64,000 nt of DNA from Candidatus Omnitrophota bacterium (GCA_015232565.1 JADFZK010000011.1:358-64357); one strand, 5' to 3'; shown: positions 23,691 to 62,616, counted from the first letter of the stretch. Program-made: numbers and translations. The notes: generated by a model from the letters alone, not told the origin.

Positions 23691-23697
23691 TTTAATC

Positions 23698-32277: not shown

Positions 32278-33975
32278 ATGGCCAATTTTATCTGCAAAAT
32301 AGAAAGATCCCTCGCCAAGCCAGCCTTGGCCGTACTTATCCTGGTCCTGCTGGGCGTGCTGGTCTACGCCAACTGCCTGCCCAATGAAATGTTCTGGGAC
32401 GATGACGATTTTATCCTCAAGAACATTTATATCCAGGACTGGAAATACTGGCCGCATTTTTTTACCGATAATGTTATCGCCGGCAACCACCTGAACAGCA
32501 ATTACTGGCGGCCGTTACTGCAGGCCGTCTTTGCCGTGGAATGGCATTTATGGAGCGACTGGGCTCCGGGCTGGCATCTGGTTAGCGCCGCCGGCCATAT
32601 CCTGGCGGGAACCGCCCTCTACAAATGCCTGGGCGCCCTGCTGAAAGACCGTCTCCCGGCCTTCCTGTGCGCGGCGGTGTTCATCGTGCACCCGGTCCAG
32701 ACCGAGGCCACGGCCTATCCCAACAGCCTGGGCGACGCGCTGGCGGCAATCTTTGTGTTCTGGGGCATCTATGCCTGGATCAAAACCCGCCGCACCGGCG
32801 CACGCGGCTGGTGGTGGGTTGCCTGGCTAATGTACCCACTGGCACTGCTGTCCAAAGAAACCGGCATCCTGTTGGCCGGCTACCTGGCCTTAACCGAATT
32901 TTTCATTCTGCAGAAAAGCGGCACCTTTTGGCAAAAGTCCTGGCGCACGCTTAGGAACCTGTGGCCTTTTATCGGCACCGCCATTGGCTACCTGGCCCTG
33001 CGGGCCACCGTATTAAACTTTGCCAATTCTTTCAACTTCTACAAAGAGCCCACCGCTTTCACCTCGCACCTGGAACTGCGCATCGTTTCTTTCCTGCAAA
33101 CCCTGGCGGCCTACACGGGGCTATTGTTCATTCCCTACGACCTGCGCGTGGAACGGGTTATCCAGCCCTCGCCCAACCTTTTTACTCCGGACGTTTTCTT
33201 TGGCGGAGCGGTTTTCCTGCTCCTGACGTTCACAATTATTTATTACTGGAAACGTAAGCCGCTGGTTACGTTCGGGGCCCTATGGTTCCTGGTGGGCATA
33301 CTGCCGACTTCCAACCTTATTGTCATCATCAATGCCGTATTATACGAACACTTCCTTTATTCCGCGCTCGTCGGTATCTTTCTGGCCATTTTCTGGAGCG
33401 GCCTGGCATGGGCCAATACCAAGACCAGAAAAAGACTGTTCCTGGGGTTAGCGTTGGTTTTTATCGCCGGGCTGGCCGGCCGCAGCCTCTGGCGCACTTT
33501 CGACTGGCGCACGGCAGTGGGTTTTTATGAAAAGCTGATCGTCACCGCGCCGCACAGTTACCGGGTGGTCAACAATCTGGGCATGGAATACGCCCAGAAA
33601 GGCCGCAATCCCGAGGCCGAAGCCACCTACCGCAAAGCCATTGTCCTGGACCCCACCAACGCGGTGGCGTACCATAATCTGGGTAATTTGTGCCGGGACA
33701 CCGGCCGCAAGGCGGAAGCCGCGCAATTCTTCGAGAAAGCCATTACCGCGCAAAGTAATTTTATCTTTTCCTACCAGGCCCTGATCCAGATCTATCTGGA
33801 TAACCAGGACTACGCCAATGCCCGCCGGGTGCTGGAACAATATTTCCAATATTCCGACGACCGCATAAATATCCTCAACCTGCTGAAAAACATCGCCCAA
33901 AAGCAGAACGACCCCGCCGCCATCCAGCGCTATTCAGAAGTATTATCCAAACTACAAACGGTCCGCCCAAAATAA
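32278..33975 (+). CDS. TMTC/PMT_2-like GT-C membrane glycosyltransferase with C-terminal TPR repeats
   Basis: 565 aa. N-terminal multi-TM region with an acidic loop (NEMFWDDDDFI), C-terminal TPRs (AVAYHNLGNLCRDTGRKAEA...). Confidence 0.65.
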   Translation: MANFICKIERSLAKPALAVLILVLLGVLVYANCLPNEMFWDDDDFILKNIYIQDWKYWPHFFTDNVIAGNHLNSNYWRPLLQAVFAVEWHLWSDWAPGWHLVSAAGHILAGTALYKCLGALLKDRLPAFLCAAVFIVHPVQTEATAYPNSLGDALAAIFVFWGIYAWIKTRRTGARGWWWVAWLMYPLALLSKETGILLAGYLALTEFFILQKSGTFWQKSWRTLRNLWPFIGTAIGYLALRATVLNFANSFNFYKEPTAFTSHLELRIVSFLQTLAAYTGLLFIPYDLRVERVIQPSPNLFTPDVFFGGAVFLLLTFTIIYYWKRKPLVTFGALWFLVGILPTSNLIVIINAVLYEHFLYSALVGIFLAIFWSGLAWANTKTRKRLFLGLALVFIAGLAGRSLWRTFDWRTAVGFYEKLIVTAPHSYRVVNNLGMEYAQKGRNPEAEATYRKAIVLDPTNAVAYHNLGNLCRDTGRKAEAAQFFEKAITAQSNFIFSYQALIQIYLDNQDYANARRVLEQYFQYSDDRINILNLLKNIAQKQNDPAAIQRYSEVLSKLQTVRPK

Positions 33976-33979
33976 AAGA

Positions 33980-34000
33980 CCGGCTTAACGCCGGCCTTTT
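33980..34000. terminator. Putative bidirectional intrinsic terminator: ccggc-ttaac-gccgg hairpin with T-runs on both strands
   Basis: Perfect 5-bp stem with a 5-nt loop. ttttag follows on the plus strand; minus-strand U-rich uuuuauuuu lies on the other side. Confidence 0.4.
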
Positions 34001-34023: not shown

Positions 34024-34161
34024 TTACGGCAAGCCGACCGGCTGGGCATTGTTGCAATTCAGGGACCACACACTGCCTGTCATCTGCATCATATTGATGA
34101 CCACCGGAGCAAAGCAGTCCACGCCGCGGGTCTTGATGCGCTGGATCTTAAACGTGTTCAT
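34024..34161 (-). CDS. 45-aa ORF that duplicates the C-terminal 40 residues of the giant protein (MNTFKIQRIKTRGVDCFAPVVINMMQMTGSVWSLNCNNAQPVGLP). Its ATG overlaps the yhcG-like stop (ATGA).
   Basis: Derived by reverse-complementing 34024-34161; not in the ORF track (<60 aa). It lies within direct-repeat copy A. Confidence 0.35.
   Translation of the reverse strand: MNTFKIQRIKTRGVDCFAPVVINMMQMTGSVWSLNCNNAQPVGLP
34026..34148. repeat. Direct-repeat copy A (123 bp, ~92% identical to 35335..35457)
   Basis: Direct alignment: acggcaagccgaccggctgggcattg...gcgctggatct. Confidence 0.9.
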
Positions 34162-35258
34162 CCCTGCGCCTCAAAGAATCTCTTCTGCTCTTGCTCAATC
34201 TGCGCCATCAAAACTTTCTCATTTGGTAACTGGAGCCTATACTTCGACGCAAATATCTTGTTGTCGAGCCCGCCCAGGGCGTATTCTGCAACGGTCTTTC
34301 TCTTATCCGCACACAAAACTATCCCCACCGGAGGATTCTCACCCGGCAGCATTTCTTTAGCTTTCAAATAATTCAAATACAAATTCATCTGCCCTGCATC
34401 AGCATGGGTGAACTCTCCAAGCTTCAAGTCGATTCCGACGAGGCATCGTAAAACACGATGGTACAAAAGCAAGTCCAAGCGATAATGCGCCCCTTCCAGT
34501 GTTATCCTTTTCTGACGGGCAACGAAGGTGAAACCAGCCCCCATCTCCAGCAAGAAATGTTCCAAATGCCTGATCAACCCATCCTCCAGATCGCTCTCGG
34601 AATATTCATCCCGCAGCCCCAGAAATTCAAGAACATACGGGTCTTTAACTTCATCCTCCGGCTTCAAAACAATTGGAGCCTTATGTGCCTTGCTGATAAC
34701 CGCTGCTTTTTTCTTTGATAACGCCGTCCGCTCATAAAGCATGGATTGCAGCTGGCGATTCAACTGCCGAACCGACCAATTACCCCGTGCGCACTCCACT
34801 TCGTAGAATGTTCTTTTATGTTCTTCATCTATCCGCATCAGCAAACAATAATGTGACCACGATAGCCCCAAAGCCCCGGACAGTGTCTGGGGTTTCTCGA
34901 CACCAAATTTCCCAGACGCTGTCTGGGAAATTACTGAACGCCGATAAAGCATGAAGAACCGTCTCATCAAACGCAGATTCTCCGACGAAAACCCTTTACC
35001 AAAACGTTTGGTCAGATCCTGGGCCAGTTTCAACAGCACCTCATCGCCATACTCTGCCCGCAGTGCACCCCCCTGCTCATGCTGAACGATACTGCGCCCA
35101 ATGGACCAATATGTGACCACTAAAGCCACATTCACCTGACGAACAGCGACTCTTCGTCCTTGCTCAATAAGCGAAGACAGCTCATTAACGAGACCAGAAT
35201 AACTGCGGGACTTTAATATAATTTTGGGCATGGCTTTATTATATCCACCACGTTTCAA
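34158..35258 (-). CDS. YhcG-family PDDEXK nuclease-domain protein (DUF1016-like)
   Basis: 366 aa. N-terminal DUF1016-like helical region, C-terminal PD-(D/E)XK-like ...LDLLLYH...VGIDLKLGEF. GC ~42%, below the core genes. Confidence 0.7.
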   Translation of the reverse strand: MKRGGYNKAMPKIILKSRSYSGLVNELSSLIEQGRRVAVRQVNVALVVTYWSIGRSIVQHEQGGALRAEYGDEVLLKLAQDLTKRFGKGFSSENLRLMRRFFMLYRRSVISQTASGKFGVEKPQTLSGALGLSWSHYCLLMRIDEEHKRTFYEVECARGNWSVRQLNRQLQSMLYERTALSKKKAAVISKAHKAPIVLKPEDEVKDPYVLEFLGLRDEYSESDLEDGLIRHLEHFLLEMGAGFTFVARQKRITLEGAHYRLDLLLYHRVLRCLVGIDLKLGEFTHADAGQMNLYLNYLKAKEMLPGENPPVGIVLCADKRKTVAEYALGGLDNKIFASKYRLQLPNEKVLMAQIEQEQKRFFEAQG

Positions 35259-35332
35259 CAGAACGGAAGATTTACCTGAAGTTCAGCAAACCCAGCGACT
35301 TTGAAATAGCATCCGGAGATGCAAACTCAACA

Positions 35333-38300
35333 TCACGGCAAGCCGACCGGCCGGGCATTGTTACTATTTAGGGACCAGACACTGCCCGTCATCTGCATCA
35401 TATTGATGACCACCGGAGCAAAGCCGTCCACGCCGCGGGTCTTGATGCGCTGGATCTCGGCAGGATCAATGTTGACCTTAACCCCGTTTCCGGTGCGTTC
35501 CACGGTCATATTGAGCATGGCGGAATCGAAGTCGATACCACCCACCTCACTGTTCGCAGAATAATCAATTCCTAACGCTTTAAGATATCTAGGAATATCA
35601 TCGCCTGGTTTATTATGTTCTTTATTCCGGTCTTCTCGACTAACGGGAAAGGAAGATGCATGTAAGCGTGTATTATTAGGATCAGTACCATTTCCTCCCA
35701 TAATGCTGCGCAACTCAACTTTCTCTTTCACAGTCAACGCCGCTCCCGCATGCGCCATACTATCCAAAGGCTCAATCAACCATACCTCCACCTCACCACT
35801 GGTCACATTCCCAACCACCGACTCAAGAAGATTAACCGTTTGCCCTTCTTTTTGAATAGTGCGCCCGGCCAGCCCGTTATAAAAATCCCGGGTCCAACTA
35901 TCGGAAGGCCTAAAACGCGGCAACTGATGAATAACACGAAGACCCAGCTCCTTCAATCTGGCCTTTACCTTCTCTTGAAGTTCGTCGATATTGGGTAAAG
36001 CCAAAGAATCCGGACGAAACATAATACTAGCCACTTTATTAAGCCCAGCCCCAGCCACCAGGGCCGGTGCGGCTGACTGCAATTCATCATTAACTTTCTT
36101 GGCCAATGCTTGCGCTATTACCATCTTGGCCACTGCCAAAGGAAGAAAAAAGTCCTTATCTGTTAAAGTTGAATCCAATTTTTTTGCTTTTTCGGCATCC
36201 TGTTCGCTCAAACTTAATTCCTGCGCTATGTTTTCCGGAGAAACATCAAATCCATTTTTCATGGCGCTCGTCAACCAATTATTTACGATTTGATAATCGT
36301 AAACGCCAGGCGTTCCATTATAAATATTCCACATTGATACACGAAGTTTGATTGCCAGCGCACGATAAACATCATTTGATTCAATGTCGAGTAATATACT
36401 GCTAGGAAGCAAAGCCAGGGCCCATTCAAAACCAGGGATCCCGGCCAGTGCCAGGCGAATCGCCGTAGAAGAAGCACCGCCCAGATTACGATCCTGATTC
36501 AACATAATCCGACCGCTTTTAATAAGATCGTCAACATCGAGCGTTTCTCCATGAGTCTTCTCGCCATCAAACGAACTGCGTTCATTAAAAAGACCTATCA
36601 CCTGGGTTGTTTCTGTCACTAGGGCGGTTTTTAACACCTCTGTCTGCGCCGCAATAATATCCAGCCCAAAACCTTCACTTAAAAGACGCCCGATAAAATC
36701 TGCTTCCCAACCGGTTTCCGGCATTTCTTCCACCCCGCTACTGATCTTCACTAAACGTTCAACGCGTTCTAAAACATCCTCTAACAATTTGGGAATTGTA
36801 TCCCGCACAACTTTGCCATCAATCTCTTCAGGAAGCCTTAATCCGCTTATTGGATCCCTTTTCTTTCCCGGAGCCTTACCGTGCATATGATCAGTACCAA
36901 CAAGGTAATAAATAATTAATTCCTTAAGCTTCTCCGGATTCGTTAATGCCAGCCTAACCAGGAATTCAACAACTTGCGTTTCTCCATCGACAGTTCCAAT
37001 ATGCTCCAGCGGCATCGAAATGAACGGCTTCATCCCAGGTTTTTTAACGAAACGCGATATCATTTTCTTGCGATGAACCTCAGTAAACAAAGTTAAAATC
37101 TTGCGAAAATCGGCCCCTTGCAGACGCATTATACAATTTGCGGTCTTTGTTCTAACAAAACCTCTCCTTATCGCATCATCCTGACCAAAATGATACGGAT
37201 CGGCCGCCAACGGATAAAACACAAGTGCATGCTCATTGATTCTGTCATCCATCACCGCCATCCCAATACCTGCCGTGGAACGTAAAATCCTCCTTTCTTC
37301 GTCATCCAAAATAAACTTAATTTTCATTTTTGTTTCTGGTGTTAATCCCGGACGCTCAAGCAACTTCCAGTTAAGTTCTTGCAACAACTCGTTTTCCATA
37401 ACCAGAACATCACTTACGGTCTTATTTTCGCGAATTTCATCAGCGTACTCTTTGCGCGCCCATGAAAACGCGGCCAATTGTTTGCCCAGCCAATCGTCCT
37501 GAGTAACTGCAAAGATCACCGCACGGGTCAACATTCCAAAGGCATTCTTTCTATCATGCACTCGTTTCAAAAACGCTTTCTCTAAAACCAGGCGTACTCC
37601 ATCGTAATAAACCCCAAAAGTTTCTTTCTTTCCATTGTCAACCACCATAACCGGCTTGCCTGTTTGACCCAACACATGCCAGGCCAAAGAAATGCTCGAC
37701 TCGTATTCGTACTCGCTTTCAATCGGAACCATTTCATTATACTTAACCGTAGATAAAGCAACGGGGCTATCAAAACCGGCATTGGAGAAACGAGCATCAT
37801 TAATCAGTTCGTCAATCAAAATGGTTCTTAATGCCTTCCCATCCACATCAACTGGAGAATTGATCTTAACCTCTCGCCCGTTGAATTCCAAAAAAACCGA
37901 AGTTTTGTCCTTAAACTTAATTCTGATCCTGTTATTCCCCATAACTTCAAAAGTGTCTCCTTCAGCAATCAGATCATTAGCATCCAGAACCAGCTCGTTT
38001 TTCCGACCCAATAAATTAGCCACAGCAAATGCCACACTTGGCAGTGATTGTGACGTTAAAATCCCTGCCGGGAAATCAGTGGGCAACATTACAATACGAG
38101 TGAAAACTTTATTCGGTGTTGCCAATGCCACCGTTGCTTTTATTTGCTGTCCATTATTTGTAGCGCTCTCACTGAAATCTTTCGATGCCGCGGACTGAGG
38201 CCTGGCCTCCAGACGCTGCGCCAAATCAACATAACTTTCTCCACCGGAAAAATACTTACGCGGAATTATTTCGCCTGTTACCGGGTCAGCGTCTTCATGA

Positions 38301-39283
38301 ATCAAATTAAAAGCCCCCTTGCTGAATTGCTTCAAGTATTCCTTATAAATACGCTTGCGAGCATAAGGATCATTGGAATTCACTCCGGCCGTTTTCTTCT
38401 GGTTTGCGTACACCTGGGACAACAAGCTGTCTTTGAGCGCTTTTTTGTACCAAGTCGCCAGCACCATAGCGCCGTATACCTGGCGCAATTGGGCAAAAGC
38501 TTCTCCAGTGTTAACTTCTTTTTCAATCGCCGGGAGCATTACTTCGCGCATTACCTTCAACTCCATCTCCTGCATGGCATCCGAAGGCGCCGCCTGATCC
38601 TCGGCCGCACCCTGCGCCTTACTGGCCGCCAGCCCAAAATAGTCCCGCGCCAGCATTACTTTCATGGAAAGCTCACCCAGTAAGACCGTATTGTTATTCT
38701 CGTAAACCACGGCCTTGTTTGGCACTATCCAAACCTTGCTTAGGGTGTCCAGCGGAACCTCGGTAGTACCCAGCTGTTCTTTGGCCGCGGCATATACCCG
38801 GCTCCAGAAAGCTTTTCCGGTATCCGAATCCGGATGCAAAATGCTTGAAGCATAACGCTTTAGCGCACTATCCTGCGCCAACATAACGCGGCCCATCTCG
38901 GTTAACCCGAGCTCATTGGGAATAATGCGATCGTTCTCGTAAGGGGAAAGGTTAACCCACAACTCTTTTTCGGGTATCGTTACTGCGGCCAGAAAATATT
39001 TCGCAAGTTTCTCTGTTTCTTTCTTTAACGCTTCACCGCTTAACTCGGTGGAACCGTTATCTACCACAAAATCAAACACCAAGGGCTCATCAACACGCAC
39101 ATTTAGAGCGCGCAGATGTACCGGAAAATATCCAGCATTCGCGGAAACGGTAGCAACAGCCGGCAAGTTAAAAGCCACCTGCGCCATTGCCGGCACCGGG
39201 AAAACCGAATTAACGCTAAAAACCAAAGCTAAAACTGCCGCCATCCGCTTTACAAAACCAGACTTCTTTGCGCAATTCAACAT
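35333..39283 (-). CDS. Giant secreted protein of unknown function (1316 aa, N-terminal signal peptide)
   Basis: MAAVLALVFSVNSVFPVPAMAQV signal-like N-terminus. No domain recognised by eye. ~45% GC versus ~58% for the core genes. SD GAGGA lies 6 nt upstream of the ATG. Confidence 0.7.
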   Translation of the reverse strand: MLNCAKKSGFVKRMAAVLALVFSVNSVFPVPAMAQVAFNLPAVATVSANAGYFPVHLRALNVRVDEPLVFDFVVDNGSTELSGEALKKETEKLAKYFLAAVTIPEKELWVNLSPYENDRIIPNELGLTEMGRVMLAQDSALKRYASSILHPDSDTGKAFWSRVYAAAKEQLGTTEVPLDTLSKVWIVPNKAVVYENNNTVLLGELSMKVMLARDYFGLAASKAQGAAEDQAAPSDAMQEMELKVMREVMLPAIEKEVNTGEAFAQLRQVYGAMVLATWYKKALKDSLLSQVYANQKKTAGVNSNDPYARKRIYKEYLKQFSKGAFNLIHEDADPVTGEIIPRKYFSGGESYVDLAQRLEARPQSAASKDFSESATNNGQQIKATVALATPNKVFTRIVMLPTDFPAGILTSQSLPSVAFAVANLLGRKNELVLDANDLIAEGDTFEVMGNNRIRIKFKDKTSVFLEFNGREVKINSPVDVDGKALRTILIDELINDARFSNAGFDSPVALSTVKYNEMVPIESEYEYESSISLAWHVLGQTGKPVMVVDNGKKETFGVYYDGVRLVLEKAFLKRVHDRKNAFGMLTRAVIFAVTQDDWLGKQLAAFSWARKEYADEIRENKTVSDVLVMENELLQELNWKLLERPGLTPETKMKIKFILDDEERRILRSTAGIGMAVMDDRINEHALVFYPLAADPYHFGQDDAIRRGFVRTKTANCIMRLQGADFRKILTLFTEVHRKKMISRFVKKPGMKPFISMPLEHIGTVDGETQVVEFLVRLALTNPEKLKELIIYYLVGTDHMHGKAPGKKRDPISGLRLPEEIDGKVVRDTIPKLLEDVLERVERLVKISSGVEEMPETGWEADFIGRLLSEGFGLDIIAAQTEVLKTALVTETTQVIGLFNERSSFDGEKTHGETLDVDDLIKSGRIMLNQDRNLGGASSTAIRLALAGIPGFEWALALLPSSILLDIESNDVYRALAIKLRVSMWNIYNGTPGVYDYQIVNNWLTSAMKNGFDVSPENIAQELSLSEQDAEKAKKLDSTLTDKDFFLPLAVAKMVIAQALAKKVNDELQSAAPALVAGAGLNKVASIMFRPDSLALPNIDELQEKVKARLKELGLRVIHQLPRFRPSDSWTRDFYNGLAGRTIQKEGQTVNLLESVVGNVTSGEVEVWLIEPLDSMAHAGAALTVKEKVELRSIMGGNGTDPNNTRLHASSFPVSREDRNKEHNKPGDDIPRYLKALGIDYSANSEVGGIDFDSAMLNMTVERTGNGVKVNIDPAEIQRIKTRGVDGFAPVVINMMQMTGSVWSLNSNNARPVGLP
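35335..35457. repeat. Direct-repeat copy B (123 bp) covering the last 40 codons and stop of the giant gene
   Basis: Aligned to 34026..34148; the copies differ by ~10 substitutions. Confidence 0.9.
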
Positions 39284-39350
39284 AAAGATCCTCTGTTTTA
39301 TGTTAGTTTATCAGTTTTGCTGAATATAGTATAAAACGGACATCCTTGCA

Positions 39351-39366
39351 ATGAAAAAATCTTTGC
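39351..39366. promoter_or_regulatory. Perfect 16-bp palindrome CTTTGCTttAGCAAAG in the promoter region of the giant gene; candidate operator
   Basis: 7-bp inverted-repeat arms with a 2-bp spacer, ~70 bp upstream of ATG 39283, between TTGCAT/TATACT-like hexamers. Confidence 0.35.
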
Positions 39367-39413
39367 TTTAGCAAAGTATGCAATATATTTCAGAGAAAAT
39401 CAAGGGGACGAAT

Positions 39414-39466
39414 AAAAAAACCGGGCCAAGACACTTCCCATCTCGTGGGAAACGCTCAACCCGGCA
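39414..39466 (-). terminator. Intrinsic terminator on the minus strand: a 10-bp stem (GCCGGGUUGAG/CUUGGCCCGG) enclosing a UCCCA-CGAGA-UGGGA hairpin, followed by U7
   Basis: Minus strand reads ...gccggguugagcguuucccacgagaugggaagugucuuggcccgguuuuuuu. Confidence 0.5.
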
Positions 39467-39575
39467 CTAAACATCGGGGGCTGTCAGGGTGGCAAGGAAG
39501 TACAACGAGTCTGGTGGATTCGTCTTTGGGGAGGGTTCCTGACAACCCCGTATCTAATCGGCCCGGCATAACCTC
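39466..39575 (-). ncRNA. Candidate structured RNA element (GC-rich rod-like hairpin). The cgggggctgtcagg (39475-39488) / cctgacaaccccg (39540-39552) helix is nested inside ccgggcc (39421) / ggcccgg (39561). Class and strand are unresolved; it could be an sRNA or a 3'-UTR structure.
   Basis: Long-range complementarity seen directly, in an otherwise AT-rich 520-bp intergenic region, followed on the minus strand by the terminator above. Confidence 0.3.
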
Positions 39576-39802
39576 CGAACCCTATCTTGCAAAGAACGCG
39601 GCGACCACTCCCGCCTAATTGAAAGCATACCCTATAAAAACGCTAAAAACAGCCCTTTTGGCGAAAAACGGGAAAACGTTTGCCCGATTTGCGCGGAATT
39701 TTTTTGCCAAAACATAAATGCTCGTCGGGAAATCACACCTTTAGAAGCTAAAAAGGCGTGCCAGGAAGGCTGAAAAATAATTAAAAAAGTTGCTAAAAAA
39801 GC

Positions 39803-41125
39803 TTAAAAATTGCCCAAAATAACGCGCCGCTCGTCGGAGATGGAATAAAACCGCACCGCCTCTTTTAGCCCGCAGGCCTTAAAGGCGATCTTTTTCTTTT
39901 TCAGGAACCGGGCAGCCTTCAACGCCAGCACGGTTTTCTTGCCCGCTCCGCAAGCGGCAATGAAAAGTTCCGGGCCTTTACGGCAGAGCTCTTCCACATC
40001 GCGTTCGGCCAGATAGGACGGCGTAATATCACCAAGCTCCTTGACCTTGCCATCGGCGCGAATAAAGAACGGGCCCGACATCAGGCGCCCCTTGACACTC
40101 AATTTACCGGAAGGCGTTACCCGGACCACGGGATAATAGGGCGCGTCTTTCAGGTCCCGGGGATCACATTCCTGGCGCACCGCCGCCACTGCCCCGAGCA
40201 TGGTGGCATCGTCGCCCAGCTTGGCCTGCAAGACCCGGGGCGTATTTAATCTGGCGAAGAACGGATCCTGTTTCAACGCCCGCTCCACGACCGGTAAAAT
40301 ATATTCTCCGCACGACTCAACCAGGCCCCCGCCAAAAATAAAAGCTTCCGGATTGAATATATGGTTAAGCGATACGCAGGCACTGCCCAGCGCCTCGGAA
40401 GACCTGCGGATAACGCGCGTAACCAGCGGGTCTTTGGCTTGCAGGGCTTTTTTTATTGCGCCGCTTTTAATTTGCCGCAATTCTTTACCCGCAATATTCT
40501 CGATCAGCGAAGCTTCGCCGTCCTTGACCGCCGCCCGGATATCCCGCTCTATAGCCCAGCGGCCAGCCAGCGCTTCCAGGCAGCCGGTATTGCCGCAAGT
40601 GCACTTTGGCCCGGCGGGATCCACGCTCATATGCCCCAGCTCCGCCGCCGCGCCCTGGGCGCCATCCACCATCCGCCCGCCGGCGATCACGCCGCCGCCC
40701 ACGCCCGTACCCGGAAAAATACCCACTACATTATTGGCTTTACGCGCCGCGCCCAGCCAGCGTTCGCCCATTACCCCGAAATTAACATCGTTGCCTACCG
40801 CCGCCGCAGTGCCGTATTTCTTCACCAGGATCTTTCTTAAATCCACCCCGCTCAGCGAGATGTTAGGGGTCACCACCACCTTGCCAGCGCCATCAACCAC
40901 GCCCGGCACCGCCACTCCAATGCCCAGGATATTCTTGAGCTGAACGTTCTCTTCCTTTAACAACTCCTTGATCACCTGGTACAAAGCCGCCAAAATGGCC
41001 CCCGCGCTGGCCTTGGCCGGCGTGGGCACCTTGATAGCGCGCGCGATCTTGCCCGAAGGGCTTACCAGCCCGCCGTAGATCTTGGTGCCGCCGATATCTA
41101 TACCGATGAAGTATTTTTTAAACAT
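39803..41125 (-). CDS. ROK-family sugar kinase (candidate polyphosphate/ATP glucokinase) with a ~110-aa C-terminal extension (Mth938-like?)
   Basis: FIGIDIGGTKI ... ROK Cys motif CTCGNTGCLE. The extra C-terminal segment reads ...ELFIAACGAGKKTVLALKAARFLKKKKIAFKA. The ORF track starts 36 nt further upstream. Confidence 0.75.
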   Translation of the reverse strand: MFKKYFIGIDIGGTKIYGGLVSPSGKIARAIKVPTPAKASAGAILAALYQVIKELLKEENVQLKNILGIGVAVPGVVDGAGKVVVTPNISLSGVDLRKILVKKYGTAAAVGNDVNFGVMGERWLGAARKANNVVGIFPGTGVGGGVIAGGRMVDGAQGAAAELGHMSVDPAGPKCTCGNTGCLEALAGRWAIERDIRAAVKDGEASLIENIAGKELRQIKSGAIKKALQAKDPLVTRVIRRSSEALGSACVSLNHIFNPEAFIFGGGLVESCGEYILPVVERALKQDPFFARLNTPRVLQAKLGDDATMLGAVAAVRQECDPRDLKDAPYYPVVRVTPSGKLSVKGRLMSGPFFIRADGKVKELGDITPSYLAERDVEELCRKGPELFIAACGAGKKTVLALKAARFLKKKKIAFKACGLKEAVRFYSISDERRVILGNF

Positions 41126-41135
41126 AATTGGAATA

Positions 41136-42482
41136 CTACACGACCGCCGAACAGAATTCAACAGGCAAACCGAATATCCGCTCCAGCAAGTCGGACTTTA
41201 CTTTAGCGGCGGATAATTCGGCGGCAATATCCGCGCCCTTGTTAACGCGCACAATACAGTCGATCTTGTGCAAACCGACCGCCAGATCCACTCCGGCCAC
41301 CAGGGCCCGATGGGTCCGGTCCAGGCCATCGGCAATACGCAGGCAAGCCGCCAGCACACCCACGTTCTCCTGATCATAAAAAGCCAGATCAGCATAGACC
41401 TTGTGCTTGCTGTCCGGCAAACTCCCCCGGTGATAACGGGCCGCTAAAGCCACCATGGCCCGCTCGGCCGCGTTTAACGGTAAAGTACGGTCTTGTAAAA
41501 TTATATCCCGCGAAGCTTTATGGTGCCCTTCCCGGCCATTGACCCACCCGGTATCATGCAATACAGCGGCCACGCGTAAATAGACCTCTTCACGCCAGCC
41601 CAGGCGATGCAGGTTTTTCAGCCCGCTGAATAGCTCTCCAGCCAAACGCGCCACCTGCAGTTCATGGTCCCCTTGCGGGAACTTGCGGCTTAAGGCGCCC
41701 GCCGCCGCCAGGCATTTCTCCGCCTCGGCTTTATTCAGGCCGTCCTGCCCCTCCAGACTGCGCGCTTGCAGGAACGAACGGATCAGCCGCGGCGAAAAAT
41801 CCCGCGCCCGCATCTCGTCCATTACGCTATCTCCGGAATAAGGCACCCGCCAATGTTCCACGGCCAGCCGCTCCGGACTGATATCCAGCACACAATACGA
41901 AGCGCGCGTATCACCATCAAAAGACCGGCCCACCCCGCCGGGATTAATAAAACGCACCCCGTCAACCGTCCGGTCAAAGAACTCATGCGTGTGCCCGCAC
42001 AAAACCACCTTTACCCCCTGGGGGCGCACTTCCGCCGCCAGGCTTTGCAATTTTTCTACCGCCGTACGCGGGGTAATGCCGTCGTTAATCCCGCCCGGAC
42101 TGCCATGCGTCAACAAAAGGCTCCAGCCGGCCACGTCCAACAATTCAGTCCGGGGCAGGCGCGCAATGAATTCCCGACTAACGGAGTTCAAAGCCTGATT
42201 GGTCCAGGCAAAAGAATAAACCTTGTCGGGGTCCTTGCCGGCGGAACGCATCTTGTCCGCATGGCTGTTATCGGCGCATTTAATATCGTGATTACCCAGG
42301 ACATGGCGGGAACATTGCTTCGCCAGCAAAGCCACCACCTGATTAGGGAACGGCGCGTAACCCACCATATCACCCAGGTTCCAGCTTTCATTAACGGCGC
42401 GGGACTGCGCGTCCTGGATAACTGCCTGCAGAGCGGGAAGGTTAGCGTGAACATCCGCGAAAAGGGCGATCCGCGTGCTCAT
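41136..42482 (-). CDS. Calcineurin-like metallophosphoesterase fused to a C-terminal HD domain
   Basis: IALFADVHAN, GDMVGYAPFP and LGNHD (MPP motifs), then AAVLHDTGW (HD). The start at MSTRIALF gives an ATGA overlap with the CHAD gene stop. Confidence 0.7.
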   Translation of the reverse strand: MSTRIALFADVHANLPALQAVIQDAQSRAVNESWNLGDMVGYAPFPNQVVALLAKQCSRHVLGNHDIKCADNSHADKMRSAGKDPDKVYSFAWTNQALNSVSREFIARLPRTELLDVAGWSLLLTHGSPGGINDGITPRTAVEKLQSLAAEVRPQGVKVVLCGHTHEFFDRTVDGVRFINPGGVGRSFDGDTRASYCVLDISPERLAVEHWRVPYSGDSVMDEMRARDFSPRLIRSFLQARSLEGQDGLNKAEAEKCLAAAGALSRKFPQGDHELQVARLAGELFSGLKNLHRLGWREEVYLRVAAVLHDTGWVNGREGHHKASRDIILQDRTLPLNAAERAMVALAARYHRGSLPDSKHKVYADLAFYDQENVGVLAACLRIADGLDRTHRALVAGVDLAVGLHKIDCIVRVNKGADIAAELSAAKVKSDLLERIFGLPVEFCSAVV

Positions 42483-43390
42483 GGGCGGTCGAGGGTAAAA
42501 TAGCTCAGGCGGGCCCAGGTCTTTTGTTTCTTCAGGCGCGACCAGATCAACAGGAAGTCCTGGTAGGCTTCCGCCCGGCGCAGGGTGCATTCTTCATGCA
42601 GGAAATTGACCGCCCGACGAAAATACACGTCACGGCCGGAACTGTCCTTGAATATCTTTATCAAACCCAGCCAGATATCAAAATTATGCATATCGCCCAA
42701 AGCCCGCTGGACTTTCATGGCCGCAAAAATAAAAGGCTTAACCTTGTTCCCGTACAGGCATTCGAAATTCTCCAAAGTGTACCGGAGATTTTTGGCCGCA
42801 ATGCGCATTTCATGCAATTCCTTCACGCAGGCGGCCTGACGCACATACGGCTCCAGGCTGAACATTTTCTCCAAACGCTCCAGGATATTGTTCTTGGCCC
42901 ACTCGTCGAGCGTTACCCCGGTCTCGGCCAGCGTCGGCTTAAGCCGGCGGATAGACTTGAAAACCTGGTGCTGATGCAAACGGGACAAGTCTTTTAGGAT
43001 GCGCGGCTGGATCTCGGCCCGGTCTTCCCGAAGCTCGTCGATGATCTCGAATATACCCTCGCGGTATTTAAGGCCCGGCGCAGTCTTGCCTCCGGCCGGC
43101 TCGGTGACCGGCCCCGCGGCCAGCTGGGTAAGATAAGAGATCTTGGTATCGATATCCCGCGCTTGTCCCAGCGAACGCAAAAGCCGCTTGATATTCAGGA
43201 TCGCCGCCTGATACTCGCGCGAGTTCACCGTTTCCTTAAAATCAGCCAGGGTACTCTTCAGCCGGCGCAGATCCACCCGCATACGATGCAAATGCTCGAT
43301 ATCCTGGCCCAGGCGCACTCCCTTAACCTCGGCCTCTACCGCCGCAATATGCTTTTCCACCAATTTGGTATACAGCGTCCGTTCATCCAT
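42479..43390 (-). CDS. CHAD-domain protein (polyphosphate-granule associated)
   Basis: ~300 aa, helical, with conserved His/Arg (HRMRVDLRRLK, KNLRY). Sits between the MPP-HD gene and ppk1. Confidence 0.65.
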   Translation of the reverse strand: MDERTLYTKLVEKHIAAVEAEVKGVRLGQDIEHLHRMRVDLRRLKSTLADFKETVNSREYQAAILNIKRLLRSLGQARDIDTKISYLTQLAAGPVTEPAGGKTAPGLKYREGIFEIIDELREDRAEIQPRILKDLSRLHQHQVFKSIRRLKPTLAETGVTLDEWAKNNILERLEKMFSLEPYVRQAACVKELHEMRIAAKNLRYTLENFECLYGNKVKPFIFAAMKVQRALGDMHNFDIWLGLIKIFKDSSGRDVYFRRAVNFLHEECTLRRAEAYQDFLLIWSRLKKQKTWARLSYFTLDRP

Positions 43391-45443
43391 AGTGTTTAAT
43401 GAAATAATCCTGGGCATTGAACCGGTCTTCCTCGGCTTTACGAAAAGAATACGTGCGCTGGCTTAATAACAGGCGCACCCGTTGATTGTCTTTCCAGGTC
43501 TGTTCCAGGACGAACCGCAAATGATCCTTGAGTTCCTGGCGATGGATCTCGAACAAGAGCTCGATGCGCCGGTCCAGGTTTCGGCTCATCCAGTCGGCGG
43601 AAGAAAGGAACATCCGGAACTCCGAATTATTATTGAACAGGAATATCCGGCTGTGCTCCAGGAAGCGTCCCACCAGGCTTTTCACCACGATGTTCTCGCT
43701 TAACCCCGGCACTCCGGGCACCAGCACGCAAATACCGCGCACGATCAAATGTACCTTTACCCCCTCGCGCGACGCCTCATAAAGCTTATCGATCATCCGG
43801 GTGTCTTCCAGCGAATTCATCTTGGCAAACACAAACCCGTTCTTGTACGCCCGCTGGAATTCGATCTCTTTATCAATAAGCTCAAAGAAATATTCCCGCA
43901 GGTCATAAGGGGATGAGATCACCCGCTTCCAGCGCGCCGGCTGGGAATACCCGGAGATCACATTGAACACGTCCGAAATATCCCGGGCAAAATCATCGTT
44001 GGCCGTAAAATAGCCGATATCAGTATAAACCCGGGCGGTCTTTTCATTATAATTGCCGGTGGACAAATGCACATAACGCCGGGTGCGGTTCTCTTCCCGG
44101 CGGACAATGAGCGTGATCTTGGAGTGGATCTTCATGCCCGCAATGCCATAGATCACATAACACCCGGATTCTTCCAGCTGGCGCGCCCAGCCGATGTTGC
44201 GCTCTTCGTCAAACCGGGCCTTGATCTCCACCAGCACCGTGACCTGCTTTTTATTCTTGGCCGCCGTTTTCAGCGCCTGAACTATTTCCGAATCCTCACT
44301 GGCGCGGTAAAGCGTCATTTTGATGGCCAGCACGTTGGGGTCGACCGCGGCCGCCTTGATCAGGTCTACCGTCGGCTGAAAAGACTGGTAGGGCATATGC
44401 AGGATGAAATCTTCTTCCTTTATACGGTCGAAAATATTCTCGTACTGCATCCTGGCCGGCGAGTATGACGGATAGAACAAGGCCGGGACTCCCGCCAACC
44501 CCACCAGCTGGAACAGGAAAGTAAGGTCTATTTCCCCGTTGATACGGGTAACTTCCTCCTTGAAAAAACCGGCCGCTTCCATGACCGCGTCGAGCAAAAG
44601 TTCCGGGCACGATTGCTCCACGGATAATTGCACCACCTTGGCCCGCGGGCGCTTCTTGATCTCTTCCTCGATCGATTCCAGCAGGTTCGGAGAAAATTCC
44701 TCGTCCACCGAAAGCTCGCTGTCGCGGATCAGCCTAAAGAGCGAAGCCCCGGTGATCTCATAACCGCGAAAAAAACTTTTCAGGTTATCGCGAATGATCT
44801 CGTCGATCAAAATGAACTCGAAAGAATCCTTGGCCGAAGGCAGTTTAACGATACGCGGAATGCTTTGCGGCACCGGGATGACCGCCAGATGGATAAGTTC
44901 CTGGTGCAAAAGATGCACCGCAAAAGCCAGCGTTTTGGAAGCCAGCACCGGGAACGGATGGCCCTGATCGATAGCCATGGGCGTAATTATCGGATACAAG
45001 GTGGAGTCGAAAAAACGTTTAGCAAATTTCTGCTGGTCGGCGGTCAACTCGCCGATCCGCCGGATGAAAATATTGTTCCGGGCCAGCTCGGGCTTAAGTT
45101 TCTGCTCGTAAATGCCATAAAGCCTTTCCACCAACTGAGCCGTGGTTTCGCGCACCTCGCGGTACACGTCCTGCGGATAATAACCGTAGATATCCTGCCG
45201 GTTATACTGGGCATCAAGCAGGCGCTTTAAGCCGGCCACCCGCACCATGATGAATTCGTCCAGGTTATTGGCAAAAATAGCCAGAAACCGCGCCCGTTCC
45301 AGCAGGGGATTCTCCGGTTCATCGGCCTCTTCCAGCACGCGGCCGTTAAACGCCAGCCAGCTTAAATCACGATGGATAAAACGATCCCGCTCATCCGGAG
45401 CCGGCGCAGAATTTACCTTTGGATCAGACATAGGAACCTTCAA
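43383..45443 (-). CDS. ppk: Polyphosphate kinase 1
   Basis: 686 aa. N-domain ERDRFIHRDLSWLAFNGRVLEEA and two PLD-like C-domains. Confidence 0.93.
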   Translation of the reverse strand: MKVPMSDPKVNSAPAPDERDRFIHRDLSWLAFNGRVLEEADEPENPLLERARFLAIFANNLDEFIMVRVAGLKRLLDAQYNRQDIYGYYPQDVYREVRETTAQLVERLYGIYEQKLKPELARNNIFIRRIGELTADQQKFAKRFFDSTLYPIITPMAIDQGHPFPVLASKTLAFAVHLLHQELIHLAVIPVPQSIPRIVKLPSAKDSFEFILIDEIIRDNLKSFFRGYEITGASLFRLIRDSELSVDEEFSPNLLESIEEEIKKRPRAKVVQLSVEQSCPELLLDAVMEAAGFFKEEVTRINGEIDLTFLFQLVGLAGVPALFYPSYSPARMQYENIFDRIKEEDFILHMPYQSFQPTVDLIKAAAVDPNVLAIKMTLYRASEDSEIVQALKTAAKNKKQVTVLVEIKARFDEERNIGWARQLEESGCYVIYGIAGMKIHSKITLIVRREENRTRRYVHLSTGNYNEKTARVYTDIGYFTANDDFARDISDVFNVISGYSQPARWKRVISSPYDLREYFFELIDKEIEFQRAYKNGFVFAKMNSLEDTRMIDKLYEASREGVKVHLIVRGICVLVPGVPGLSENIVVKSLVGRFLEHSRIFLFNNNSEFRMFLSSADWMSRNLDRRIELLFEIHRQELKDHLRFVLEQTWKDNQRVRLLLSQRTYSFRKAEEDRFNAQDYFIKHYG

Positions 45444-46972
45444 AAACTTTCGTTGATCACCAGCCGGATCCGGCTGCCGGTTATACGTTCAAAAAGCTCT
45501 TTCTTTTCCAGGAAGTCATTCTTCTCCAGGAGAAAATTATCCCGCGAATCCACCTGCAGGGTAACATCATCACTGGTGCCGTTGAGCACCTTTAATTCCT
45601 GCACTTTCTGCCGATGCGCATGGTCCAGCGCATTGGCAATGCGCAAAAGCGCCGACAGTTTTTGCACCGCGATCTGACGGTCGTCCGACAGGCTGTTATA
45701 CACCAGATGCGACCTCTGCGGATCGCCCCGGCGATGATAACGCGCCACGCAAGCGATAGTCTTGATCTCTTCGTCAGTAAGGCGGAAAAGATTCAGTGAA
45801 CTAATGATATATTCCGAATGTTTGTGGTGCGCGCGATTGGAAATGAACTTGCCGATATCGTGCAGATAAGCCGCCAGGCTCAGGTAAAGCAGGTCGCGTT
45901 CCTCCAGCCCCAGCTGTGCCCCCAAACCCTCAAAAAGCACCTTGGCCAGGTGGGCCACATGCTTGGAATGATCGATATTAACATTGTATTGCTCGCAGAT
46001 CGAGTGCGCCACCGACAAAAGCTGATTGGACTTGTTATACCTTCTCGAAAGCTCCAGCCCCAGCACTTTATTGGCCAGCACCGCCTCGGCCAGCGAAGTC
46101 TCCAGGATATAGACGTGCGGAATGCCCGTTAATTCAAAGAACATCTTAAGGACCACCATGTAAGGCAAAAGCGCCTCGGTGTTCTCTACCGGCAGGTCGT
46201 AATCGTGGGCCACTTCCTCATTGGTCTTTTCGGTCAACTCGGTAATAACTTTGTCCACCTCGTTAACACTGAACTGAAAGAAATTGGTCGAAACCTTCTT
46301 GCTCGGCAGGATGGCTTTTAACAGGTCCTGGTTCTCGTCGATCAGGAAAATATCATCCACATGCAGGCGCGGCAGGCGCGTCTTAAGGTAACGAAACTCG
46401 TTCTCGATATATTCATGCACCGCTTCCGCCAGCTCTTCCTTACTGCCGTCGATCTTGCCCGTCAGCTGTTTAAACCGCAACGCGCCCAGGGCCAGCCCGG
46501 TGTTCATCAGGGTAAACCCTTTTTTCAAGATCGAGATATCCAGGCTGCCCGCCCCCATTTCAGCGATCAGCAGATTCTTGTTATGAACGGGATAAGTACC
46601 TTTCAATTTGTGGGAAATATAAGCGTCAATGTAGTAAACAATGTCGCCGACATTAAGCACATCGATCTCGAGCCCCGTCTTGCGCCGTACCGTATCCACG
46701 AAAATATTCCGGTTATCCGCTTCCCGCACCGCGGTGGTGCCGATCACGAACACCTGGTTTACATTGTATTCCCGCAGGATCTTTTTATATTTCTCGAGGG
46801 TGTTGATGGTGAGATTAATGAGTTCCTGCGAAATGCTCCCTTTGAGGAAAGTGGCCCGCCCGATAGGCACCACGTTCTTCAGGGACTCGATGATCATAAT
46901 ATCGCCGTCGGAAGGCTCACCGATAAGCAGCTTGATGGAATTGGATCCTATATCAATTACACCGCTAGCCAT
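45440..46972 (-). CDS. ppx: Exopolyphosphatase / guanosine pentaphosphate phosphohydrolase (Ppx/GppA) with a C-terminal HD-like domain
   Basis: ASGVIDIGSNSIKLLIGE actin-like ATPase fold N-terminus. 4-nt overlap with ppk. Confidence 0.88.
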   Translation of the reverse strand: MASGVIDIGSNSIKLLIGEPSDGDIMIIESLKNVVPIGRATFLKGSISQELINLTINTLEKYKKILREYNVNQVFVIGTTAVREADNRNIFVDTVRRKTGLEIDVLNVGDIVYYIDAYISHKLKGTYPVHNKNLLIAEMGAGSLDISILKKGFTLMNTGLALGALRFKQLTGKIDGSKEELAEAVHEYIENEFRYLKTRLPRLHVDDIFLIDENQDLLKAILPSKKVSTNFFQFSVNEVDKVITELTEKTNEEVAHDYDLPVENTEALLPYMVVLKMFFELTGIPHVYILETSLAEAVLANKVLGLELSRRYNKSNQLLSVAHSICEQYNVNIDHSKHVAHLAKVLFEGLGAQLGLEERDLLYLSLAAYLHDIGKFISNRAHHKHSEYIISSLNLFRLTDEEIKTIACVARYHRRGDPQRSHLVYNSLSDDRQIAVQKLSALLRIANALDHAHRQKVQELKVLNGTSDDVTLQVDSRDNFLLEKNDFLEKKELFERITGSRIRLVINESF

Positions 46973-46976
46973 ATTC

Positions 46977-49415: not shown

Positions 49416-49618
49416 CGGAACCTAAACCTCTCACCTTAATAGAAAACCCGTCCTGGTGTAGCGTGTCTGTCGCTTCTTTACATTTGAAGAGCATCTTGTT
49501 TTCGAACGTATAGGAAAGCATTTTATACTCGCCTGTACCATAAAAACTTTCGTGATAATGCTTAACGGCCGGAAAACTGTGCCGCTAAACATTATCACGA
49601 AAACATTATCCTCGGCAC

Positions 49619-51631: not shown

Positions 51632-51711
51632 GATAACTCTCCATTGCAACGTTTGATTTTATATAAAAACCGCGCCGGTCCGGCCAGGCCATACAGCGCG
51701 TGACAAAAAGG

Positions 51712-60054: not shown

Positions 60055-60073
60055 GCTCTCTTATCTATCATAG

Positions 60074-61747: not shown

Positions 61748-61750
61748 CGA

Positions 61751-62614
61751 TCAAAGCTCCCTTCCACCGCGGTATATCTGAATATACGGCTTGGCATCCA
61801 CGGCGCTCTCGGTCTCCACGCTCAGCTCGGCTTTTCTGGCTACCGGCTCTTCAGTCTGCAACTTGATATCCGCGCCGCTGTTCTCCAGCACATACTCACC
61901 CAGCGTAGACCAGTTGGCGGTGGGTATCATCGGCCGGCCTTTTTCGGTCGGCGTACGCAAAGCCAGTTCCAGCTTTCCGTTCAGGTCGGCAAAAGCCAGC
62001 AAGCCGGCTTCCTGCGGATCGACCGCAAAGGTAACTTTTAAGGCTTTTTCTTTTTGCTGGAATTCATAAGCACCGGGCTCGTCAATATTCGTATTGATGG
62101 CCAGCACCTGCAGGCCCTGAAAGATCATGGCCGTAACTTTTTCCTTTGGATCGAGCTTTTTTCCCGTGGGCATATCCAAATGGGCAATAACGTCCACGAA
62201 ATCGCCAGGGTTAAGCAGTCCGCCTACCGCGCCCAAAGATTGCAGTTCCACCGTAAGAGCGCGCTTGCCCGCCGGAGTACGTAAGGCGAGCGAAGGCTTC
62301 TTTTTGGGGGCTTCCGCGGCCGCTGTTGTAACGGCGGCTTTTTGTGAGGCCGCCATTTTTACCGCTTCCTGCGCGGCTTTATTGGCACTGGCCTGCACTT
62401 CCACTATCTTCTGGTTAAGGCTCGCGATGTCCTGCTGATACTGTGCCTTGTTCTCTTCCTGCGCTTTCTGGTACTGATTGGCCAGCTTGGTAGTCCCCTC
62501 ATTCACCATCGAGGTTACCACATTGCCAACCAGGACCGAGGCCACTACCCCGGCCGCTATCGCTACCGCGATAAAAGTGAACTGCACTTTGTTCCCTGCG
62601 TTAAATAAGGCCAT
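61751..62614 (-). CDS. cpaB: Flp pilus assembly protein CpaB/RcpC (SAF domain)
   Basis: N-terminal TM, ...RTPAGKRALTVELQSLGAVGGLLNPGDFVDVIAH... Confidence 0.8.
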   Translation of the reverse strand: MALFNAGNKVQFTFIAVAIAAGVVASVLVGNVVTSMVNEGTTKLANQYQKAQEENKAQYQQDIASLNQKIVEVQASANKAAQEAVKMAASQKAAVTTAAAEAPKKKPSLALRTPAGKRALTVELQSLGAVGGLLNPGDFVDVIAHLDMPTGKKLDPKEKVTAMIFQGLQVLAINTNIDEPGAYEFQQKEKALKVTFAVDPQEAGLLAFADLNGKLELALRTPTEKGRPMIPTANWSTLGEYVLENSGADIKLQTEEPVARKAELSVETESAVDAKPYIQIYRGGREL

Positions 62615-62616
62615 AA

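Follow-up and report, generated by a model that had tools for sequence, protein, structure and literature searches.

A stretch of 64,000 nucleotides from a Candidatus Omnitrophota bacterium (GCA_015232565.1, JADFZK010000011.1:358-64357), referred to here as the window, was analyzed around an open reading frame (ORF) of 1,316 amino acids (aa) that lies at 35333..39283 on the minus strand, with its ATG start at 39283. Position, strand, and length agreed with an earlier note on this DNA. The product was 100% identical to a hypothetical protein of one Candidatus Omnitrophica metagenome-assembled genome (MAG). Searches of Pfam, NCBIfam, and the PDB sequences with the whole protein and its segments returned noise only (DUF6422, DUF3659, DUF4317, liprin), and neither internal repeats nor self-similarity was detected. 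The ORF belongs to a very large, apparently undescribed family of modular proteins restricted to Omnitrophota, in which two conserved terminal domains, called bookends here, enclose a variable cargo.

Architecture, distribution, and predicted export signals of the bookend family

Members of the family begin with a Sec-type signal peptide and an N-terminal domain (N-domain) of ~315 aa that has FSGG at its end. These are followed by a variable cargo, 300-1,900 aa long, and by a C-terminal module (C-module) of ~55 aa starting with GGID. The sequence relatives of the 1,316-aa protein fell into more than 2,270 protein clusters, which is a lower bound, since only the 8,000 best word-sharing candidates were scored. 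The BLAST breakdown, motif counts, lengths, and cysteine counts given below refer to the best 120 family proteins, that is, the query and 119 relatives. All 119 relatives matched the query from aa 1 to ~350, and 100 of them also matched aa ~1243-1300 at their own extreme C-terminus, with 30-67% identity in the C-module. Between the bookends, the sequence of the relatives was unrelated to that of the query, except in five full-length orthologues (P0002-P0006). The FSGG and GGID motifs were both present in 111 of the 120 members and enclosed a cargo of 300 to 1,876 aa (median 902 aa). No cargo-less member was found among the 120 best matches, the shortest cargo being 300 aa. Bookended members reached up to 3,200 aa.

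The N-domain of the target protein (aa 35-348; 38240..39181, minus strand) ends in an invariant YFSGG and was 45-66% identical to that of the 119 relatives. Its invariant residues include WVNLSP (aa 109-114), D138, K142, K183, W185, D214, E256, N258, R267, and Q268, and the query holds every invariant column, with the signature WVNLSP...D..LK...YFSGG. The AlphaFold2 (AF2) model of the domain comprised six long helices and two beta-hairpins, with a mean predicted local distance difference test score (pLDDT) of 74 and a predicted template modeling score (pTM) of 0.67. A Foldseek search of PDB and BFVD gave no significant match for this fold, the best one being NheA (E = 0.028, probability 0.13, template modeling (TM) score 0.10). 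A family profile likewise had no match among the PDB sequences, and the domain had none in Pfam or NCBIfam.

The C-module of the target protein (aa 1248-1300; 35384..35542, minus strand), delimited by BLAST and motif, reads GGIDF...VERTGNGVKVNIDPAEIQRIKTRGVDGFAPVVINM. Its consensus is GGID(F/L)...GF.PV(I/V)IN and runs to GF.PVIINI.P, and the distance from GGID to the end of the protein had a median of 70 aa. AF2 modeled it as a hairpin, a helix, and a strand at a pLDDT of 50-70. Both cargo junctions are Gly-Gly family-wide, namely YFSGG (aa 344-348 of the window protein) and GGID (aa 1248-1251). They may act as hinges within one fold or be sites of processing. C39 double-glycine processing at FSGG and GGID was entertained as an idea only, as the upstream residues did not, by eye, resemble a double-glycine leader; C39 peptidase domains are reported from giant Omnitrophota proteins. 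GlyGly-CTERM and PEP-CTERM sorting signals were rejected because a terminal transmembrane helix plus basic tail is lacking.

The cargo of the relatives is made up of enzyme or regulatory domains of a normally cytoplasmic kind. The Pfam domains found there belong to nucleotide metabolism (NDK, NUDIX, adenylate kinase, guanylate kinase, CoaE, cytidine deaminase), to sugar and central carbon metabolism (UDPGP (UGPase), PGM, class II FBP aldolase together with GAPDH, FBPase, PPDK_N), and to regulatory and other functions (MutS, the receiver domain REC, HATPase_c, GNAT, methyltransferases, HEAT repeats).

In species-representative genomes (one genome per species), at least 588 family loci were confirmed. 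The best 80 of these were all titled Omnitrophota/Omnitrophica, 'Candidatus Aceula', or 'uncultured Planctomycetales', save one titled 'bacterium'. The title 'uncultured Planctomycetales' is carried in the European Nucleotide Archive by the MAGs of loci L011, L014-L017, L020-L023, and others. Since the family is otherwise exclusive to Omnitrophota, these titles are probably a labeling artefact, with Omnitrophota filed under an NCBI-taxonomy placeholder. Several family copies occurred in one MAG, and a second family gene stood head-to-tail in ~20% of the loci. No other member was present in the 64-kb window apart from a 41-codon relic described below. A cluster look-up of the family members yielded no informative names.

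The signal peptide of the target protein (aa 1-34; 39182..39283, minus strand), MLNCAKKSGFVKRMAAVLALVFSVNSVFPVPAMA followed by Q, was recognized from the pattern of its n-region, core, and AxA-Q site. As the earlier note had remarked, a signal-peptide-like segment is present, with four K/R residues, a hydrophobic core, and a PAMA-Q cleavage site at aa 31-35. A net-positive n-region and a strongly hydrophobic core were found in 109 of 114 intact family N-termini. Among 59 aligned members, the cleavage site had Ala at position -1 in 55, one of A/S/V/G/I/T at -3 in 54, and Gln at +1 in 51. A small residue at -3 with Ala at -1 is the pattern of signal peptidase I. We infer that the protein is exported via Sec and cleaved after AMA, which would leave Gln35 at the N-terminus. 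By hydrophobicity, the query has no further transmembrane-like segment; only aa 941-959, a buried helix, reached comparable values.

Cysteine made up 0.08% of the residues of the family, whereas 29 other ORFs in the window had 1.17%. This 14-fold depletion spans bookends and enzyme cargo alike, and 71 of the 120 members, at a median length of 1,290 aa, had no cysteine after residue 40. Because many secreted and surface proteins avoid cysteine, this depletion was read as a strong compositional signature of extracytoplasmic proteins. Together with the signal-peptide pattern, it lends support to the earlier expectation of a large secreted protein, whose exit from the cytoplasm is most likely.

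Cargo of the target protein and the probable mosaic history of its gene

The cargo core of the target protein (aa 379-1037; 36173..38149, minus strand) is shared only with the five full-length orthologues P0002-P0006, at 36-38% identity and with many invariant motifs in the alignment. AF2 modeled aa ~390-1038 with a pLDDT mostly above 90. In a Foldseek search of PDB with this model, aa ~680-985 (36329..37246, minus strand) matched NadD/NaMN adenylyltransferases of many species, which accounted for 42 of the top 50 matches (probability ≥0.98, ~12% identity, target TM 0.56-0.72 and mostly 0.62-0.72). The remaining eight were TmcAL (five), the bifunctional NadM (one), and IMP-nucleotidase (two). 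Thus, in the predicted structure, the cargo folds like a NadD-type nucleotidyltransferase and may act as one. The absence of recognizable domains claimed earlier held for the sequence libraries (Pfam, NCBIfam, PDB sequences) and failed for structure, where the NadD-like fold was recognizable.

Two short motifs accompany the fold. The variant (H/T)xGH motif DPYHFGQ (aa 695-701; 37181..37201, minus strand) keeps the first His and has Gln in place of the second, a replacement that is invariant in the alignment columns of six orthologues. ASSTAIR (aa 937-943; 36455..36475, minus strand), in which S, T, A, I, and R are invariant columns, is the counterpart of ISSTxIR, a motif of the NadD/NMNAT family. 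The target cargo therefore resembles NadD/NMNAT in its fold, the first His of HxGH, and the ISSTxIR-like ASSTAIR. It differs in its low identity, ~100 extra residues within the fold, the second His, its place within a 660-aa block with extra domains, and its predicted export. The query neither carries the full HxGH motif nor reaches the Pfam gathering threshold: it gave no match to PF01467 (CTP_transf_like) at E ≤ 1, and the orthologues P0006 and P0007 scored 12 bits versus a cut-off of 21. Of ten cargo relatives scanned, four were borderline for PF01467, the best being P0152 with 21.2 bits versus the cut-off of 21.

An exhaustive HMMER profile search of 1.84 billion representatives found 62 cargo relatives, and word-indexed searches with the cargo alone or with the cargo alignment found only two to three proteins. 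Some of the 62 were modules inside Omnitrophota proteins of 4,000-6,400 aa (the largest 6,428 aa), and many were proteins of 300-450 aa that matched only the region around FYPLAADPYHFGQ...YLVGTDHMH. HxGQ was also present in many cargo relatives, and distant short relatives kept HWGH. Seven distant relatives of 350-430 aa (P0154-P0156, P0160, P0164, P0165, and P0169) had signal-peptide-like N-termini of their own and no cysteine. Three of them (P0155, P0156, and P0165) carried the canonical DPFHWGH, the motif search being negative in the other four. These sequence features suggest a wider, unstudied class of exported NadD-like enzymes.

Between the cargo core and the C-module, the target protein carries an insert of ~160 aa (aa ~1078-1240; 35564..36052, minus strand) where all five orthologues have a gap. 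Against a profile that combined E. coli NDK with four NDK domains of the family, aa 1090-1216 aligned colinearly with a non-significant score of 1.6 bits, and BLAST against the family NDK domains gave E = 0.14. No Pfam match, including PF00334, was found in aa ~1078-1240. The motif TRLHASS stands where NDK has NxxHGSD with its catalytic His, and the AF2 pLDDT there was only 30-66. Judging from this alignment, the insert is possibly a degenerate, lineage-specific NDK-like domain. The nucleotide-kinase-like look that had been noticed near the C-terminus is in keeping with the colinear NDK profile and is weakened by the 1.6-bit score and the low-confidence model.

Comparison with other loci pointed to a mosaic gene. 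The gene order of metallophosphoesterase-HD, ROK glucokinase, family gene, and convergent TPR gene was the same in the window and in locus L002, where the family gene at the syntenic slot has a UDPGP cargo instead of the NadD-like one. The identities of the bookends did not follow the cargo. The N-domain of the query was 60-66% identical to that of P0008-P0010, which have a different cargo, versus 52-53% to that of P0003-P0006 with the same cargo and 63% to that of P0002, also with the same cargo. Its C-module was 60-67% identical to that of P0008-P0012, P0018, and P0019, which have a different cargo, versus 49-58% for the same-cargo P0002-P0006. Consequently, bookends and cargo have, by sequence comparison, separate histories. 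Across 97 relatives, N-domain identity was correlated with C-module identity (Spearman 0.38, p = 1e-4).

The GC content of the ORF was 46.3%, with 43.3% in the cargo core, ~49% in the bookends, 54-56% in the immediate flanks, and 52.5% in the whole window. The low GC is thus real but smaller than the 45% versus 58% given previously. Its concentration in the cargo is more in line with an exchange of cargo than with the gene having been acquired as a whole. The idea that family genes are intrinsically GC-poor was rejected, the mean difference from the upstream flank being -1.2 ± 4.7 points.

The 3′ insertion, the upstream region, and other features of the window

The 3′ end of the gene contains one copy of a 123-nt direct repeat (35335-35457 and 34026-34148), which corresponds to the last 41 aa and is 94% identical at the DNA level and 90% at the protein level. 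The second copy (34026..34148, minus strand) is a relic of the last 41 codons. It is out of frame with any ORF, has Cys in place of the otherwise invariant Gly of the GF motif, and has on its 3′ side, at ~33969-33998, a terminator-like hairpin plus T-run. Between the two copies lies a gene of 366 codons (34158..35258, minus strand) for a YhcG/DUF1016 PDDEXK nuclease, which is not part of the target protein. It matched the Pfam families YhcG_C (E = 1e-57) and DUF1016_N (E = 3e-43), and homologues with ~48-50% identity were annotated on 516 plasmid records. This gene is absent from the syntenic locus L002, where the TPR gene directly follows the family gene. No integrase or transposase is present. 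The simplest reading of the sequence is that 1.3 kb (34026-35457) inserted into the 3′ end of the gene, with its own 41-codon copy restoring the frame; the original gene end and its terminator would have been displaced, and the downstream repeat would be a decaying copy. The description of the ORF as terminated by a duplicated C-terminal module was thus right about the repeat, and the second copy is a displaced relic, not a functional module.

Upstream of the start codon, the Shine-Dalgarno-like sequence AGAGGA (39289..39294, minus strand), read from the sequence, lies 6 nt before the ATG. A sigma-70-like pair of TTGCAA and TATATT with a 17-nt spacer (39323..39351, minus strand) lies ~40 nt 5′ of the ATG. 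It scored 9/12 in the consensus scan, and such sites were no commoner in the region than in shuffled sequences. The gene-strand sequence at 39351-39366 is gcaaagattttttcat; the perfect 16-bp palindrome reported there is absent, and the nearest feature is an imperfect hairpin, CTTTGC-TAAA-GCAAAG, followed by a T-run, ten bases off at 39361-39376.

The intergenic region 39418-39640 folded at -82.5 kcal/mol (z = -1.8), a value equaled by 12 of 200 shuffles, and Rfam gave no match upstream of the gene, either at the gathering threshold or at E ≤ 1, for a riboswitch or known noncoding RNA. Within it, a region with a 12-bp-stem hairpin (39475-39555, minus strand) was 77% identical over 84 nt to positions 2637-2718 of a sister-MAG locus (L001), ~280 nt upstream of the family gene of that MAG. 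It was not found in loci L002, L003, and L004 and had no Rfam match. This region could be a lineage-specific small RNA, leader, or repeat element. Given the modest z-score, the lack of an Rfam match, and conservation of 84 nt in one sister MAG only, the structured intergenic element proposed earlier is weak. In L002, a small antitoxin-like ORF and a PIN-type toxin-like ORF were seen by eye between the glucokinase and the family gene (2086-2900). The presence of these ORFs in one locus and of a hairpin-rich region in the window implies that the intergenic slot accepts insertions.

Several other regions of the window were annotated. A contiguous polyphosphate/glycogen block at 39803-54150 encodes a ROK glucokinase, a metallophosphoesterase-HD/Ppx-III protein, a CHAD protein, PPK1, and Ppx/GppA, as well as GH57 plus DUF3536, a branching-enzyme-like alpha-amylase, and glycogen phosphorylase; other MAGs have the first two of these genes in synteny with the family gene. 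The region 21813-25590 encodes in tandem two paralogous glycosyltransferases of PMT_2 type (625 and 630 aa), which have near-identical N-termini and are adjoined by a radical-SAM/SPASM gene and a methyltransferase. The downstream copy (21813-23690) has a GC content of 47.6% versus 52.8% in the upstream copy, and the stretch on its downstream side is GC-poor too, with 44-46% per 1-kb bin across 20-23 kb. A Tad-like block at 57880-63591 comprises a fused CpaE/ParA-like and CpaF (T2SSE) ATPase, a secretin with a C-terminal TonB_C domain, RcpC/CpaB, and a Rotamase_2/SurA-like peptidyl-prolyl isomerase lipoprotein, the secretin-TonB_C fusion being unusual. As stated in the earlier note, this block is distant from the target gene and not adjacent to it (~18.6 kb). 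It corresponds to a secretion locus that is reported to be conserved across Omnitrophota and to lie near giant genes.

Interpretation and relation to known systems

We favor, with a probability of roughly 0.55, the interpretation that the target is an exported modular enzyme in which the bookends, as shared modules for targeting or anchoring, enclose an interchangeable cargo. After export via Sec and cleavage of the signal peptide, the two bookends would act as targeting, anchoring, or docking modules that recognize one common partner, for which a transporter, an envelope polymer, or a scaffold are candidates. The final location may be the periplasm, the cell surface, or beyond. Recognition of one common partner is proposed as the reason why a cargo that is exchanged freely stands between bookends that remain 45-66% identical. 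The cargo would act on nucleotides or pyridine nucleotides outside the cytoplasm, and a plausible role would be the salvage of NAD, NMN, and nucleotides from hosts or prey via reversible adenylyl transfer.

Several points weigh against this interpretation. No recurrent non-family neighbor that could be a dedicated transporter was found in the flanks of 79 loci, and no linkage of the Tad-like/secretin block to the family was found, with 18.6 kb separating that block from the target gene. Signal-peptide cleavage was judged by a rule of thumb rather than a trained predictor, and the export of the family is read from sequence patterns and composition. With the second His replaced, the NadD-like domain may or may not be catalytically competent. 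In addition, many of the cargo types (kinases, nucleotidyltransferases, REC, MutS, HATPase) need ATP or cytoplasmic partners and are hard to fit outside the cytoplasm, which keeps alive three explanations other than the exported enzyme with targeting bookends: delivery into host cells, a single structural unit, and a tether on the cytoplasmic face.

If the proteins are effectors delivered to hosts or prey, the N-domain would be a translocation or membrane-insertion module, comparable to those of AB toxins and two-partner-secretion (TPS) exoproteins. The enzymes would then enter the cytoplasm of the cell to which the ultra-small Omnitrophota attach and re-route its nucleotide and sugar metabolism. 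Such a destination suits the cargo repertoire, which is biochemically sensible only where ATP/NTP and phosphorylated intermediates exist, and the extreme cysteine depletion, which is typical of proteins crossing membranes unfolded. Omnitrophota are reported to be ultra-small with host-dependent traits (PMC10066038), and the weak best Foldseek matches of the N-domain were the alpha-helical pore-forming toxins NheA, Cry6Aa, and colicin Ia. However, these matches were non-significant (E 0.03-0.6, TM ~0.1), and the elongated helical bundle and beta-tongue of ClyA/Nhe-type alpha pore-forming toxins were not reproduced (NheA, E = 0.028, TM 0.10). No hydrophobic beta-tongue or transmembrane hairpin was evident, no injection apparatus was linked to the family genes in the 79 loci, and the role of the conserved C-module would be left unexplained. 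We regard delivery into other cells as unlikely. A somewhat smaller probability is given to the view that the two bookends form one fold, in which the FSGG and GGID hinges lie side by side and the cargo is inserted at the hinge. The protein would then be a self-assembling subunit of an envelope or surface lattice or scaffold, an enzyme-decorated surface layer (S-layer), and the bookends would not be targeting signals. Invariant Gly-Gly at both junctions, the co-occurrence of the bookends in 111 of 120 members, their correlated divergences, and a very high N-domain conservation that fits homo-oligomeric packing all speak for such a unit. A cysteine-free composition is, moreover, typical of S-layer proteins. 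Against it, the correlation could also be a lineage effect, and the 120 best matches included no member without cargo, with a minimum cargo of 300 aa.

That the proteins are not exported at all and are tethered at the cytoplasmic face, as proposed for Omnitrophota giant proteins with transmembrane segments only, appears improbable. The cytoplasmic type of the cargo would agree with such a tether, and a 2026 preprint interprets many of the long multi-enzyme proteins of Omnitrophota as anchored in the membrane, their domains being in the cytoplasm (10.64898/2026.06.07.730766). That preprint, however, also reports multi-enzyme giants that bear signal peptides (10.64898/2026.06.07.730766). A K/R-rich n-region before a single helix predicts an N-in/C-out topology, the AxA-Q site is conserved in more than 90% of the members, and a 14-fold cysteine depletion is unexpected for cytoplasmic enzymes. 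The view of the earlier note, an orphan giant adhesin or toxin without recognizable domains that was horizontally acquired, can draw on the GC below that of the flanks, the lack of Pfam and NCBIfam matches, and the neighboring mobile-type YhcG insertion. It seems to us very improbable, given thousands of relatives, a neighborhood conserved in other Omnitrophota genomes, and the NadD-like enzyme fold. Nothing was found that points to an adhesin or a classical toxin, and no repeats, beta-helix, Ig-like domains, or toxin domains were detected.

Modular exported proteins with shared targeting modules are a known kind, and the bookend pair itself is apparently undescribed. The general theme of Omnitrophota multi-enzyme proteins is already known, because two preprints describe giant proteins tiled with enzyme Pfam domains, most of them with signal peptides or transmembrane helices (West-Roberts et al., 2023, 10.1101/2023.11.21.568195; 10.64898/2026.06.07.730766). 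These giants share NUDIX, PPDK_N, HATPase_c, HEAT, PGM, REC, GT1, and methyltransferases with the bookend family. In the preprints, they are at least 10 thousand aa (kAA) long and classified by Pfam content, whereas the bookend family measures 0.7-3.2 kAA and is defined by its N-domain and C-module. A keyword search of open-access literature, including both preprints and a phylum-wide survey in Nature Microbiology, yielded no account of the family with this N-domain and C-module.

In function, the nearest analogues of the bookends are TPS domains, the C-terminal domains (CTDs) of type IX secretion system (T9SS) cargo, and SLH/dockerin modules, and the defining features of none of them were found here. 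TpsA proteins resemble the bookend family in having a Sec signal and then a conserved N-terminal domain of ~250-300 aa on diverse passengers, and in them the domain is conserved because one common transporter, TpsB, recognizes it. In contrast, the TPS domain is a beta-helix (Haemagg_act), while the bookend N-domain consists largely of helices plus two hairpins and matched nothing in Pfam; TpsA has no conserved C-terminal module, and a TpsB-like gene was not adjacent to the family genes in the 79 loci. T9SS cargo similarly comprises many unrelated enzymes that have a Sec signal at the N-terminus and a small conserved module at the C-terminus. Its CTD, however, is an Ig-like beta-sandwich of 70-100 aa, found in Bacteroidota and without an N-domain, whereas the bookend C-module was modeled, at low confidence, as hairpin, helix, and strand. 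The T9SS CTD models (Por_Secre_tail/TIGR04183) gave no match in Pfam and NCBIfam scans of the query and nine whole relatives. SLH and dockerin exoenzymes likewise form a large paralogous family with a conserved anchoring or docking module on many catalytic domains, but their cargo consists of extracellular glycoside hydrolases and that of the bookend family of nucleotide, sugar-phosphate, and regulatory enzymes of cytoplasmic type; the query had no SLH or dockerin match in Pfam.

A broader proposal, which we put forward tentatively and hold to be possible rather than probable, is that the novel N-domain and the C-module, for which no relatives were detected elsewhere, define a phylum-specific sorting pathway that exports whole enzymes of the central metabolism of nucleotides, cofactors, and sugar phosphates. 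The destination would be the cell surface, an enlarged periplasmic metabolic space, or attached host cells, and new cargo would be recruited by recombination between the conserved bookends. Such a pathway, if it exists, would represent a secretion or display system of a new kind and offer a mechanistic handle on nanobacterial host dependence.

By combining the architecture of the family with structure prediction, an ORF that had seemed to lack domains was resolved. Omnitrophota are widespread, uncultivated, and ultra-small, and their dependence on other cells has been deduced while its mechanism is unexplained. If the interpretation as exported modular enzymes is true, the bookend family would account for a major part of Omnitrophota cell biology, as yet without a name, in which metabolic enzymes are routed outside. 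The N-domain and C-module could be used as baits for the partner machinery and as a bioinformatic marker for the exported proteome, and the family would provide a testable hypothesis of how Omnitrophota may exploit the nucleotides, NAD, and sugar nucleotides of their hosts or prey.

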